A stretch of 64,000 nt of DNA, taken from sequence record MT884009.2; one strand, given 5' to 3'. This DNA comes from Escherichia phage vb_EcoM_bov11CS3. A program made the position numbers and the translations under genes. The notes below the pieces were generated by a model. That model was not told the DNA's origin. It saw nothing but the letters and a program-made list of their open reading frames with translations, and made no database searches. Positions 1-36,108 of this stretch are shown piece by piece (positions within the stretch are counted from its first letter, which is position 1; every line of letters starts with the position of its first letter).

Positions 1-542
1 GGCGGACGAAATGGGAATACTTCTCATTCTTATAATAATTCTCAAATATCGAGGCAGTGAGGCAAATTAATAGGCCAGGCCGTTCACACAGTGGCACAAC
101 ATTTGCAGCCTATCCTGTGTGGATGAATGAGAATACCTATCATTGTGAGAACTGTTATCATTACGGGCAATTTAACATAATACCCATTATGCGCACCACT
201 GGCGATACATACAGGGGTTGATAACATGAGTTACAGTTTACGCATATAACAATCATATTTCTTACTATTTGTGTGGGATATAGTTAGCAGCCAATAGATT
301 AGATATTGACCTGTGGACTTCCAACCGTCTAGACGTCTAAGCGCCCACACAACAAGGGTTATACATACATCGCTGAATGTAAACAGGGCCGCAAAAATGC
401 TACCATACAAGATTGTAAATTTTTCATGCGGCACTTGACAAAGAGGAGAAAAACTTGTCTGACACACTGGGCATACTCAACACACTGGATACAATAACAA
501 TTGTTACTATTGCATGCCTCACTGTTCACGCATAGATGATAA

Positions 543-821
543 GCCATGCCATTCGTTTGCATGATAACGATTAGCAAGTTAATAATCTTTCGCTGGCTAT
601 GCCAGGTGACTAGGTCACCCCTTCGGGTGTTTCTATGACATAATATAAAAGCAGGGCAACTATTAGAAGATCTATAGTTGCCTTGCTTGTTATGTCATGA
701 TTAACTAAATACAAGGCAACTATGATCTGATTAATAGTTTGCAGACAAACTATCACGGGGGTGATGGTTACTGCTTTTATATTATGTCGCGACTCCGTCG
801 CGCCATGCCATTCGTTTGCAT
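543..821. repeat. Composite palindromic element: 20-bp direct repeats (543-562, 802-821) flanking 18-bp inverted repeats (639-656, 771-788) and two 9-10-9 inverted-repeat sites (655-682, 715-742)
   Basis: Direct repeat gccatgccattcgtttgcat twice; inverted repeat gacataatataaaagcag/ctgcttttatattatgtc; half-site GGCAACTAT in inverted pairs with 10-bp spacers; extra palindrome ggtgactaggtcacc at 606-620. Confidence 0.7.
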
Positions 822-1437
822 AGTTGCCTTATTGTTACAGGTAAAATAATTACATTATTAATTATTTCTTATCTTTCTCTTAGTCATCTAATGATTCCAG
901 TCAGTATAGTAATGCACAGTAAACATTAGACGACTAAAGATTTCTCTGTTTATGATAACTCATCGTGATAATTTCGGACTGTTTACGAAAAATGTTGACA
1001 CCTGAGCTGATTTATGTTATGCAGTTTACACGAATAATTATTTTATGCAGGTATTGACTATTCCGTTATTCTGTGGTTGGAATAAATACTTTGCAGGCTA
1101 TAGAATGGCGTGCGTACGTGAATTCTGAGATCTGGCGGCTATAGTTATACTCGATTTTTCGCGTAGAACACGCTTTCGATGCTGTGTAAGTGTATGACTT
1201 ATAAAGATTTTTAGTTGTTGACAAGATATTGGAGATGTGCATCAGGTTAAAATTTGTGCAATAGCGGCATTACGTGCACTTTTGGGAGAGAAAACGGGTA
1301 AAAATGGACTTGCTACCACACAATGAAAAATTATGCAATAGTTATTTTCCATGTATATTTGTACAGTATGTGGGATTGATGGCTAGTCAATTATTCCACT
1401 TGCCAGGTAGGGCCGTTTATGGTAGGAGAAGAGCAGA

Positions 1438-1462
1438 CAAAAAGAAAGGGGCCTAAGCCCCT
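1438..1462 (-). terminator. Rho-independent terminator (minus-strand sense)
   Basis: Hairpin ggggc-ctaa-gcccc followed on the minus strand by a U-tract; immediately 3-prime of ORF 1482-1901. Confidence 0.6.
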
Positions 1463-1481
1463 TGATAATTCAGTTAAAAAA

Positions 1482-11026: not shown

Positions 11027-11202
11027 TTAGTTAAAATTATTTTTTGGGTAGAATTCTCCAGCCGCCGCCCCTGCCAGGTTAACCATCATTTTTTCGTACT
11101 CTTCTTTATGTTCCAACGCTCCCGCCATAGCCTTTTCAACCAGGGCGATAGCCTCAGCGTCATTAATAGCTACATTTTCCAGGGGGATCATATTACCTTC
11201 CA
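11027..11202 (-). CDS. small protein (58 aa), not in ORF track
   Basis: ATG with strong SD gaggagg. Confidence 0.35.
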
Positions 11203-11467
11203 TTTTTGTACCTCCTCTTCAATTGTTACCTATCCTATAGCATAGGCCCACCAGGTTTGCAAGCCTTCATTCTCTCCTACCTGGTCAGTTAGGCCCTGCC
11301 AGGCTGGCCCCGCCAGGTTGCAGCGGTCAGCGCATCAGGTTAGAAATTTTTTTTTGAAAAGTGTTGACAGCGGCCCCGCCAGGTGGCAAAATATACCTAT
11401 CGAAAGGACGGCAGGCACCGGTGACGGGGGAGACAACCACCGGGGATGGGCGCTGCATGAAATGAGA

Positions 11468-11484
11468 ACGATTATCATTATCGT
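11468..11484. promoter_or_regulatory. Fur-box-like palindromic operator (imperfect)
   Basis: acgattatcattatcgt resembles the GATAATGATAATCATTATC consensus. Confidence 0.35.
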
Positions 11485-11601
11485 CTAAAAATTTATGCAA
11501 AAACTTCTTGCTTTCTTTGTCCTGTGTGTTACTATAATAACAAGCCGGGGCAGTAGGGGCCGGGAGACAATCACCGGGCCTGCCCGTTATTCTGCAAACG
11601 A

Positions 11602-11616
11602 GAATGATTATCATTC
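11602..11616. promoter_or_regulatory. Fur-box-like perfect palindrome GAATGAT-T-ATCATTC
   Basis: Perfect 7-1-7 inverted repeat; 12 of 13 match to the Fur-box core AATGATAATCATT. Confidence 0.4.
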
Positions 11617-11732
11617 AAAATTCTAAATGAGAACTCCTCGCATTTAATAAATTTAATTAGCACGCTAATTACCCTCCGTAACAATTTCCTATAAAATAGT
11701 ATCCACTAAAATATTCCCATATAGAAATTTTA

Positions 11733-11910
11733 AAAATCCATTTCTGAAAACGAAAAATCGATTTCGTCCCCAAAAATTTCAGGTCGAGAGCCGGAACGAT
11801 TTCCAGAAAATCCGATTCAGAAAACGAAAAACAGATCGAGTACTGAGAAATTTATCGAGAAAAATTTTCAGAAAATTCAATCTTTGAAACGAAAAACAGA
11901 TCGAGTACTT
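11733..11910. repeat. Three degenerate 38-bp direct repeats (iteron-like)
   Basis: Copies at about 11733, 11808 and 11873 share gaaaacgaaaaacagatcgagtact. Confidence 0.6.
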
Positions 11911-12219
11911 GGAAAGCTGCGCCACAACTTCAAGGTAGTGGTCGGATTATTACTATAAAAGGTCAAGGGTAAGTGGGGGAAGTTCTAGTAGAAGGGTGTG
12001 AGCATGTGCGGGAAATCTGTAATGGTGGTCTGGAATATGGTGCAGACGATAGGATGAGTGGTTCATCTCGTCGTGCCTGCTCTGAAAAATCCATTTTAGT
12101 TTTCGATCCATTTTCTGATTTTCTAAGGATTTTAAAATATCCTGGTAGGTAAAATATCAAAAGGAGGAAATCCATTTTAGAAATCCTCCTGATCTCTGGC
12201 AACCTGATAACTTAAAATA

Positions 12220-12552
12220 TCAGGCTCCCAGTGTGTTCTTTCCTTTATACAACCGTAAGGGTATAGTTTTTGTAACAGTCCATCTCCCCAGCCCTTCCCA
12301 GTTCCAGTTGTAGGCATGGTACCCGGTTACGCATGCACTGCTGGAGTGATCATAGGCATAAGAGAACGCTATACGCACCAAATGAAACCAGTCTTTCCAC
12401 GGTTGTGGTCCGTAAGCTTTTCTCCAACACCGACACAAGCTAAATGTCTCAAGAATAGGCAGGATAACAAATCCATACACCGCCACCAGAATAGCCAACG
12501 CAATGATTGTCAGGAATACATACCCTGCAGTTGAAACGATGATCTCTGTCAT
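12220..12552 (-). CDS. membrane protein (110 aa)
   Basis: Hydrophobic N-terminal segment; ATG start. Confidence 0.5.
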   Translation of the reverse strand: MTEIIVSTAGYVFLTIIALAILVAVYGFVILPILETFSLCRCWRKAYGPQPWKDWFHLVRIAFSYAYDHSSSACVTGYHAYNWNWEGLGRWTVTKTIPLRLYKGKNTLGA

Positions 12553-34923: not shown

Positions 34924-36108
34924 TTAAGCTTTAGCTAAAATGGCGCTAAACTCTTCACCAAACTCTTTTACAATCTTCATCAGGTTTGGGTACGCTTTGA
35001 TCAGTTGAGCAACGATCTTGTCACGCCCTTTACCGATAAGCAAGGCATTTCCTAAGGCATTAGGTTTCATCATCGCCATAAAGACTGAGAATACAAAATC
35101 TCGGTTCTCGTCCTTGAAGTTTTCCCAAAGGAAATCGAGGAAGTTTGCCACGCAGCTGACAAGATCTTCATCTGAGATACTTGCATTTTCCATCATATTA
35201 CGAATAGCGATACAACCTTCAGATCCAAGAATCCACAAGATGTCTGGCTGCTTAGGACCTACGTATTCTTTGCAACCCCCTGCCATAATCCGACCGATTT
35301 CCGGTAAATTGCGTTTCTTGGTGTGGTAGGTCCAGATCTCTACCGCTGCAGTGTGACCAATAGCACCTTGCAGAAGAACACGGGCCATAGCGTCAGAAAT
35401 AATACCGCTGTCAAAATCGTGCAGGATATCAGATGCAGCAACCCAAGATCGCGGTGTGGCAAAAGATGGGCAATTAATCTCAGCCATAGCCTCATAATTA
35501 TCAATAGCTGACGGAACTCTTTTCAGATACCCAATTACAGAGGAGTGCACTCCATTAAGGAATGCGTAGTCCTCAATAAACACCTCTGCATTGCTTGTAA
35601 CTTCTACAATGATAAAACGGTTAGCCAGAGGGGCTTCAAGCGCCGAAAGAACCGCACCATCTGTAGAACGGTTACCTGCAGCTACAAAAACAGAGCCCTT
35701 AGGGAATGCATAGGTGCCGCACTTGTGGTCGAGCATAATTTGCATTGCAACCTTTTGCAGGTAATTATCTGCATGAGTAAGCTCATCCAGAAAGATAATT
35801 CCGCTCCAGTCCGGATCTGCAGGCCAGAATTCTGGAATTGCAAACACTGTACGTGTAGTTCCATCCGCTTCTACAGGGATAGGTAGCCCAGATAAGTCGG
35901 CAGGATCTTTATCTGACAGTCGCACGTCAACCAGGTTGTCATCTCGCTCACCGAACATATTATCGGCGATCTGCTTCATCACCTGGCTCTTCCCCACGCC
36001 CATTGGTCCTAAAATCAGGACAGATCGGTTATGACGTTGGGCAAACTGAATGATAGCTGGCAACTCACGGACAGTGATTTGACCACTTTCAAATACGTTT
36101 CTTGACAT
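34924..36108 (-). CDS. MoxR-like AAA+ ATPase, 394 aa
   Basis: Walker A VLILGPMGVGKSQ and Walker B IIFLDE; ATG start. Confidence 0.8.
   Translation of the reverse strand: MSRNVFESGQITVRELPAIIQFAQRHNRSVLILGPMGVGKSQVMKQIADNMFGERDDNLVDVRLSDKDPADLSGLPIPVEADGTTRTVFAIPEFWPADPDWSGIIFLDELTHADNYLQKVAMQIMLDHKCGTYAFPKGSVFVAAGNRSTDGAVLSALEAPLANRFIIVEVTSNAEVFIEDYAFLNGVHSSVIGYLKRVPSAIDNYEAMAEINCPSFATPRSWVAASDILHDFDSGIISDAMARVLLQGAIGHTAAVEIWTYHTKKRNLPEIGRIMAGGCKEYVGPKQPDILWILGSEGCIAIRNMMENASISDEDLVSCVANFLDFLWENFKDENRDFVFSVFMAMMKPNALGNALLIGKGRDKIVAQLIKAYPNLMKIVKEFGEEFSAILAKA

Follow-up and report, generated by a model that had tools for sequence, protein, structure and literature searches.

The primary origin of phage T7 consists of two tandem promoters followed by an AT-rich segment, and oriF and oriG of T4 combine a promoter with an unwinding element. 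Among packaging sites, lambda cosB has the sites R3, R2, and R1, which are bound by gpNu1, and includes an IHF site; in P1 pac, PacA recognizes GATC-containing hexamers. Here we describe three direct repeats in a control region without open reading frames (ORFs) of Escherichia phage vb_EcoM_bov11CS3 (sequence record MT884009.2). The window that we analyzed is the first 64 kb of this rV5-like Vequintavirus genome and is 100% identical by megablast to vb_EcoM_bov22_2 (MT884010.2), with identical coordinates; whole-genome searches covered both strands of 135,884 bp, composed of the window joined to two further stretches. rV5-like phages (Vequintavirinae) are widely isolated and have been proposed for biocontrol and therapy. 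In the rV5 genome paper, the region is drawn as a grey 'non-coding' box lacking ORFs, and skew analysis failed to place the replication origin; the skew changes found were linked only to transcription (PMC3606486). ORF-less regions have been assigned functions elsewhere: in the PLE satellite, an ORF-less repeat region is the origin, and in ICP1, an ORF-less region is a pac site or putative rolling-circle origin (PMC7145576). We conclude that the three repeats probably constitute a single-locus, cis-acting docking array for one sequence-specific DNA-binding protein.

A repeat search found three direct copies of a 57-nt unit, at 11720-11776, 11794-11850, and 11859-11915, with starts 74 and 65 bp apart; compared to the middle copy, the outer copies show 63% and 79% identity. 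The first-pass annotation of this window had reported three direct repeats of about 38 nt at 11733-11910, and these were confirmed both by the repeat search and by a sequence-only profile of the unit (R1; Table 1). The second spacing of 65 bp in that annotation was correct, and the first was 74 bp rather than the 75 bp given. Copies 2 and 3 do share an identical core, which is 23 nt long (AAACGAAAAACAGATCGAGTACT; 11822-11844 and 11887-11909) and not 21 nt. In 5000 first-order Markov simulations of region 11700-11930, the longest direct repeat was 16 nt, and the length of the 23-nt core was reached in none (0/5000). The description of the copies as degenerate and irregularly spaced also held. 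Both properties are consistent with the failure of Tandem Repeats Finder to call the array.

We aligned 21 units from seven phages, anchored on the part termed box B. The units align without any indel and give a consensus of about 38 nt, gA.AATACGaT.T.GAAAttGAAAaatCGATCGAGA.CC, which comprises three parts: box A (AATACG, or AAATCC in Vequintavirus), an A-rich spacer (GAAAAyGAAAAA), and box B, (C/A)GATCGAG(A/T)ACC, whose GAT is invariant in the 21 units. The AATACG and GAAA blocks keep a fixed register, boxes A and B lie about 24 bp apart from center to center, and box B differs by genus (AGATCGAGTACT, CGATCGAGACCC, and CGATCGAGAACC). An inverted sub-repeat is present in some units only. In an alignment of six Vequintavirus genomes, the box B of unit 3 is invariant and its box A side varies among strains. 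Copy 1 is divergent at its 3' end, with TCGATTTCGTCC where the others have CAGATCGAGTAC, and this form of unit 1 is likewise invariant across the six genomes. Because its box B is altered, the minus strand of unit 1 folds into a hairpin of 17 bp (-15.9 kcal/mol, z -4.1) with a U run after it, and this hairpin was flagged as terminator-like in a promoter/terminator scan. Two additional box-B half-sites between the units (Table 1) are both invariant in the Vequintavirus alignment, and in Certrevirus an equivalent TATCGAG lies 31 bp past its unit 1.

The array occurs at one place in the genome. Profile R1 has exactly three matches in the 135,884 bp at E values up to 10, where the informative part of the result is the absence of a fourth match, because the training set included the three units of the window. 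In motif searches of the whole genome, the combination of box B and spacer was found at the array only. Ten loci outside the training set (four other Vequintavirus genomes and six IMG/VR contigs) gave exactly three R1 matches each, on a single strand; the profile matched nothing in ESCO13 and nothing in the 8.4 kb covered from the early region of KPP-1. Three units are kept in all sampled genera of the Vequintavirinae, at spacings of 74 and 65 bp in Vequintavirus, 63 and 78 bp in Certrevirus, 67 and 74 bp in Mydovirus, and 67 and 76 bp in Seunavirus, as well as in Serratia phage Kashira (65 and 67 bp). We saw no variation in the copy number of the units, and the sole length polymorphism is a 47-bp indel at 11243-11289, distant from the array. 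Scanning genome contigs for three occurrences of CGATCGAG returned only chance matches in GC-rich genomes, and scans of viral contigs added only further Vequintavirinae contigs. No description of the array was found in the searchable literature; the array represents a new family of sequences within a kind of element that is familiar.

Conservation of the array was compared with that of its surroundings as identity to the window among five Vequintavirus genomes. Identity is 95.4% in the three-repeat array, 97-98% in neighboring hairpin and Fur-box segments, 93.5% in a right-hand block at 12081-12195, 87-95% in the flanking genes, and 72.9% in the 165 bp of non-coding DNA after the array. Strong purifying selection on the array is supported by this sequence comparison.

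Neither coding capacity nor RNA folding provides an explanation for this conservation. A protein-coding array was rejected, because the variable columns are spread evenly over the codon positions (57/60/55) and the window has no long ORF there; in other genera, long stop-free stretches run over the array on the T-rich minus strand. A structured RNA was rejected, because the whole array folds no better than shuffled sequence on the two strands (z +0.59 and +0.66); Rfam gave no match for the array. These folds also bear on the idea that the array is transcribed, either from P2 or a promoter further upstream or by read-through on the minus strand, and acts as a decoy, sponge, or antitoxin mimic in the manner of the phiTE pseudo-ToxI, which we regard as unlikely. 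Promoters point into the array, the unit 1 hairpin is much stronger as minus-strand RNA owing to G-U pairs, and phiTE uses repeated non-coding RNA against ToxIN (PMC3475682). However, besides the lack of folding beyond shuffled sequence, no conserved pairing was found, and the units are unequally spaced and not head-to-tail, as the Tandem Repeats Finder result also indicates. Type III antitoxin RNAs of the ToxI kind consist of exact head-to-tail repeats of about 34-45 nt folded as pseudoknots. ToxI and pseudo-ToxI were rejected as identities for the array on these grounds and for want of any ToxI similarity. The pseudo-ToxI (escape) locus of phiTE lies at 106.7 kb of the phiTE genome, outside the homologous gap.

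The first-pass annotation had also distinguished the repeats from clustered regularly interspaced short palindromic repeats (CRISPR), and all of the evidence agrees. The repeats are only 63-79% alike, and the 27-37-nt 'spacers' are conserved among strains and form part of a longer repeat. No Rfam CRISPR-DR family matched even at E values up to 5, the annotated genome contains no cas gene, and no protospacer-type matches were found: the array region has no match among 5,426 E. coli genomes, and among plasmids it matches only a phage-like record. A CRISPR-like mini-array or a solitary-repeat anti-CRISPR RNA, whose resemblance to the locus is limited to the superficial geometry of 38-nt repeats with 27-37 nt between them, is extremely improbable. 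So is a chance or decaying duplication without function; decay is excluded, as the array is 95% conserved and three units persist from genus to genus.

The evidence for a docking array is that the repeats occupy a single locus at fixed copy number and in one orientation, keep an indel-free register around a lineage-specific core, and are strongly conserved without a coding or RNA-fold signal. Moreover, a genus-specific box B, together with the different family of units in ESCO13, is what would be expected if the site and the protein that binds it co-evolve. A dispersed promoter or operator was rejected, because the genome has only three sites, all at one locus. Promoters inside the units were rejected as well: as read from the sequences, neither strand has a -35/-10 pair conserved from genus to genus.

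What such a bound protein would do is less certain. A bound phage or host protein might control the hub formed by promoter-like sites P1 and P2 and their hairpin RNAs, or block transcription converging from the rightward promoters and the leftward operon of replication genes, as part of a regulatory or insulating nucleoprotein array not involved in replication; we consider this somewhat unlikely. The array lies between rightward promoter-like sites and the end of a leftward operon with a terminator-like hairpin, and unit 1 is itself a strong minus-strand hairpin with a U run. In addition, Fur-box-like operators adjoin the array, the gap is clearly a regulatory hub, and box-A-like motifs recur 250-350 bp away in the right-hand block, which would permit looping. 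By contrast, a general early-gene switch should have many loci, given that the early sigma-70-type promoters of Certrevirus are scattered over the early region at 13-21 sites per genome (PMC7344957), and the motif is present at only one. Nor is there a promoter conserved across genera inside the units or directly after them.

The three units could also be a packaging signal (pac- or cosB-like), bound by the small subunit of terminase, or a rolling-circle nick site. Three sites within about 180 bp resemble lambda cosB, there is a GATC in box B and a gene for an adenine methyltransferase in the phage, and a pac site must exist somewhere, because Vequintavirus, CB7, and phiTE are reported to have headful packaging or circularly permuted genomes. 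Yet the gene for the large terminase subunit (90318-91865) is about 80 kb away, and GATC is not enriched in the Vequintavirus array, which has two sites compared to a genome average of 5 per kb. Furthermore, KPP-1 has three units, yet its 514-bp terminal repeat is located about 8 kb off, in the convergent ORF-less region. Together, these points leave packaging with a low probability.

We tentatively favor the possibility that the docking array is the replication origin of rV5-like phages. This reading of the sequence is favored by the unwinding-prone AT-rich stretch that adjoins the array and by the promoters that face this stretch, by the presence in the genome of a T7-type primase/helicase and polymerase in a phage type for which no origin has been mapped, and by the precedent of the ORF-less repeat regions in PLE and ICP1. 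In such an origin, three units in one orientation and 63-78 bp apart would assemble the protein into a higher-order nucleoprotein complex, and host RNA polymerase would fire from tandem P1 and P2 toward the array. The protein complex and transcription would then open the AT-rich stretch (11621-11732), and in Vequintavirus the G-rich stretch at 11916-12080 might stabilize an RNA-DNA hybrid. Finally, the T7-type primase-helicase and DNA polymerase of the phage would load. The genes for these two proteins are located 9-14 kb from the array, on the same operon side.

The first-pass annotation had interpreted the repeats as initiator-binding iterons. An iteron-like array is partly supported by the single orientation, non-coding location, AT-rich neighbor, unique locus, purifying selection, and presence of exactly three units in each sampled genus, and the conserved cis-acting array at one locus stands. 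The size and spacing of classical iterons do not, and the search for an initiator gene was negative.

Several results weigh against an origin. Pfam and PHROGs searches with the flanking proteins and ten proteins of the replication region found no initiator or origin-binding protein; 8 of these 10 proteins lack a Pfam family, and the only AAA+ candidate (34924-36108) is of the MoxR type. An unrecognized initiator may exist. Units of 38-42 nt with an irregular period of 63-78 bp are unlike classical iterons of 17-22 bp in helical register, and no consensus site for DnaA or IHF is present in the gap of the window. Stability is lower at 96.0-96.3 kb and at 0.8-1.1 kb of the genome than in the AT-rich stretch, which is therefore not its minimum. 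GC skew is about -0.075 to the left of the gap and -0.129 to the right, without a switch in the direction expected of an origin. The A5T5-6 tracts, GATC clustering, and G-rich spacer are each lineage-specific. Finally, GC-rich hairpins with U-rich tails lie between the promoters and the AT-rich stretch and may terminate transcription before this stretch is reached.

There is a slim chance that all of these elements work together, as an origin with host-polymerase promoters that make short hairpin RNAs, Fur boxes that serve as an iron-status gate, an unwinding stretch, and three long bipartite iterons for an initiator protein, which would couple replication to the host iron state. Such an origin would be of a build not described for any phage. 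The former 'non-coding' box is now a defined and testable module of three 38-nt units plus promoters, hairpin elements, and Fur-box-like sites, and where replication of rV5-like phages starts is now a directly testable question.

Table 1. Features of the ORF-less control region, in coordinates of the window
Feature	Position	Strand	Basis and remarks
ORF-less control region holding the repeats	11204-12219		Flanked by minus-strand genes, of which one ends at 12220 and one starts at 11203
Promoter-like P1 (TTGACA, 17-nt GC-rich spacer, CAAAAT; TG before second hexamer)	11364-11392	+	Consensus scan, 10/12
GC-rich hairpin element 1 (GGAGACAACCACC in loop region)	11411-11456	+	Fold -20.1 kcal/mol, z -1.8
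Fur-box-like palindrome 1 (GATAATGATAATCGTTCTC)	11464-11482	-	17/19 versus E. coli Fur consensus GATAATGATAATCATTATC
Promoter-like P2 (TTGCTT, 16 nt, TGtTACTAT(AAT))	11508-11538	+	Sequence reading and homologue register
GC-rich hairpin element 2 (loop GGAGACAATCACC, then GTTATTCTG)	11548-11585	+	Fold -21.6 kcal/mol, z -0.8
Fur-box-like palindrome 2 (overlapping 19-mers 6 bp apart; 14/19, 15/19)	11594-11618		Repeat family and scoring
Third, weaker Fur-like palindrome	11625-11644		Repeat family and scoring
AT-rich low-stability stretch, directly upstream of array	11621-11732		70% AT; candidate DNA-unwinding element
Repeat unit 1 (AAAATCCATTTCTGAAAACGAAAAATCGATTTCGTCCCC)	11733-11772	+	Profile R1, 26.9 bits, E 5e-7; box B divergent
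Extra box-B half-site GGTCGAG, between units 1 and 2	11782-11788	+	Motif listing
Repeat unit 2 (box A AAATCCGAT, spacer GAAAACGAAAAAC, box B AGATCGAGTAC)	11806-11845	+	Profile R1, 33.4 bits, E 5e-9
Extra box-B half-site TATCGAG, between units 2 and 3	11853-11859	+	Motif listing
Repeat unit 3 (box B AGATCGAGTAC)	11871-11911	+	Profile R1, 30.6 bits, E 3.6e-8
Sequence-variable spacer with conserved G-rich bias	11916-12080	+	73% identity; GC skew +0.35 to +0.50 in five Vequintavirus strains
Right-hand conserved block	12081-12195		Repeat families; AAATATC repeats

The source record has no credible coding sequence in the gap of about 1 kb at 11204-12219, and the genes flanking it are both small, on the minus strand, and of no known family. 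A gap of like architecture is present in phiTE, KPP-1, CR8, KE23, Kashira, and F5M2A, and in part in ESCO13. The homologous gaps share an order of elements, which begins with one or two sigma-70-type promoters with GC-rich spacers and continues with short GC-rich hairpin elements (loop motif GGAGACAAnCACC) and two to four Fur-box-like palindromes. An A+T-rich stretch, the three units, a variable spacer, and a second conserved block of short repeats near the end of the upstream operon complete this order. The gap of ESCO13 (Stephanstirmvirinae) has the promoters, the hairpins, and four palindromes, and a different family of about three units at the position of the array. In distant blastn searches, 11507-11656 was recognizable in 246 phage records, from all Vequintavirinae genera and the Stephanstirmvirinae.

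Upstream of the array, P1 is invariant in the Vequintavirus alignment and oriented toward the repeats. P2 was missed by the promoter scan, because its first hexamer matches at only 3 of 6 positions; it is invariant in the same alignment except for one base, and its sequence suggests homology to the CTTGCAA-17-TATATT promoter found in other genera. At 11245-11388 the window has four or five copies of a GC-rich 17-mer, GGCCCCGCCAGGTTGCA, and sequence like this 17-mer forms the -35/-10 spacer of promoter-like sites in the gap of the window and in other genera. The 47-bp indel removes one copy of the 17-mer in some strains.

Hairpin element 2, with the sequence that follows it, is the portion of the gap that all genera conserve. 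The module of a promoter and a GC-rich hairpin (loop GGAGACAAYCACC, U-rich tail) has three copies in the genome, at 11364-11456 (+), 11508-11585 (+), and 2846-2748 (-), of which the third lies in a different intergenic gap and on the other strand, where it has a TTGCTA-16-TATACT promoter of its own. These modules are candidate small RNAs or terminators and have no Rfam match. RNAalifold, run on a MAFFT alignment of the hairpin element, gave no usable consensus structure, and the single-sequence folds in Table 1 are only suggestive.

In ESCO13 and in every genus other than Vequintavirus, a second element of about 90 nt, nearly invariant (ACGCCACCCCACGGCGAAAAGGCGGGGCTAACGTACC...GGAAGGTGGATCGCCGGTAG) and with its own promoter, precedes the hairpin module. 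In the extracted loci it is located at L009 1312-1424, L003 2352-2462, L008 1312-1420, L010 1308-1420, L011 1325-1424, L012 1368-1472, and L013 1312-1424. It shows one compensatory pair (G-C to A-U), is not present in the window, and matches no Rfam family.

The neighboring palindromes, and not the repeats, are what match the Fur box, and on sequence they are putative binding sites of host Fur or of a phage protein. They are of the type AAATGAGAAyGATTmTCATT and are located just past the hairpin elements. Palindrome 1 is the sole site in the 64-kb window with at most three mismatches to the Fur consensus, compared to 0.03 expected by chance. Five 19-mers in the window match this consensus at 14 or more of 19 positions, and three of them are within the gap. 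Most genera sampled have two to four Fur-like palindromes, often as 19-mers matching at 14-16 of 19 positions that overlap at a 6-bp shift; the four palindromes of ESCO13 are 29 bp apart.

Ranking of stability across the 135.9-kb genome placed 11642-11741 as the fourth-lowest 100-bp window and 11601-11900 as the third-lowest 300-bp window. The gap of the window lacks both DnaA-box and IHF consensus sites; in relatives, DnaA-box matches are sporadic. In several genera the gap has a single perfect DnaA box (TTATACACA or TTATCCACA; L003 2511, L008 1465, L009 1476, L013 1476, and L011 1924), which in Certrevirus and Mydovirus coincides in part with the -10/start region of P2.

Downstream of the array, 11916-12080 is the least conserved part of the gap, and its bias of G over C on the plus strand is opposite to that of the surrounding genome. 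This bias is also present in Serratia phage Kashira and absent from Mydovirus. The right-hand block contains box-A-like AAATCCATTTTAG at 12087 and 12168 and another such motif, ATCCATTTT, in CGATCCATTTTCTG from about 12104. It also contains an AGGAGGA...TCCTCCT hairpin, after which the minus strand reads TTTTGATATTTT. This hairpin, whose fold on the minus strand has an energy of -18.3 kcal/mol (z -1.4), is probably the terminator of the upstream operon. Other genera have AAATATC-type repeats at a spacing of about 11-13 bp at the equivalent place.

Where the plus- and minus-strand gene blocks converge, the genome has another region without ORFs, about 2.5 kb long, which consists of window positions 1-1481 and genome positions 134,874-135,884 (L015 34874-35884). 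Two of the genome's least stable stretches are located in it, as are palindromes of the ATGAGAAT...TATCATT type (121-165), and Klebsiella phage KPP-1 has its reported 514-bp terminal repeat at the corresponding position.

Several database records touch on the gap. In MT884010.2, the protein accessions jump from QNR53330 (gene 11027-11203) to QNR53120 (12006-12152), and an earlier version of this record probably began inside the gap. The partial contig OR845172.1 begins at about 11.8 kb, within the repeat array; assemblies seem to break at the gap. In JeffSchatz and PMBT16, three to five small 'hypothetical protein' genes each are annotated over the gap (extracted loci L002 3527-4125 and L230 481-1329), and one of them covers the repeat array. 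Their reading frames are not conserved among relatives, and as judged from sequence these genes are probably spurious. Sixteen to 17 GenBank 'Campylobacter phage' records (MG0656xx; among them C12, C7, C9, D1, and A142), with C. jejuni as the stated host, are 92-99% identical to the coliphage region over 1.8 kb, and their host labels look doubtful. CP057073.1 (pRHB39-C03_2; L232) is a 137,565-bp circular sequence from cattle faeces that was deposited as a non-mobilizable E. coli 'plasmid'. It matches a 531-bp query (window 11400-11930) at 100% identity and seems to be the genome of an rV5-like phage, which was either carried or assembled from contaminating phage DNA.

Of the described systems, ICP1 is a large lytic myovirus with the same families of polymerase and helicase-primase, in which a conserved ORF-less space of about 1.3 kb acts in cis in packaging and in putative rolling-circle initiation (PMC7145576). 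The bov22_2 genome likewise has two ORF-less regions, the repeat gap and the convergent region at 134.9-1.5 kb. There is no similarity at the sequence level, and the ICP1 assignments rest on coverage profiles, whereas the array is read from sequence. The array resembles cosB and P1 pac in having three repeated putative binding sites within about 180 bp and GATC in the core; unlike them, it lies far away from the terminase genes, is separated from the terminal repeat by about 8 kb in KPP-1, and has no IHF consensus. As in the T7 and T4 origins, promoter-like P1 and P2 face an AT-rich stretch, and the phage combines a T7-type primase-helicase and polymerase with the lack of a recognizable initiator. 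By contrast, the promoters in the gap would be of the host sigma-70 type and each is followed by a GC-rich hairpin, and T7 and T4 have no counterpart of the repeat array. Compared to iteron origins (lambda ori, P1 oriR, and pSC101 with three iterons), the array differs in its 38-42-nt unit (versus 17-22) and irregular 63-78-bp period (versus about 22 bp), in having no adjacent or recognizable Rep or initiator gene and no DnaA or IHF sites, and in that its role in replication is putative. It is like them in its non-coding direct repeats of one orientation, AT-rich neighbor, single locus, and lineage-divergent motif, and some of its units are semi-palindromic around an A/T tract, as are the RepA_N iterons of PLE (PMC7145576). 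If the array is an origin, it would be one with unusually long, bipartite, and widely spaced iterons.

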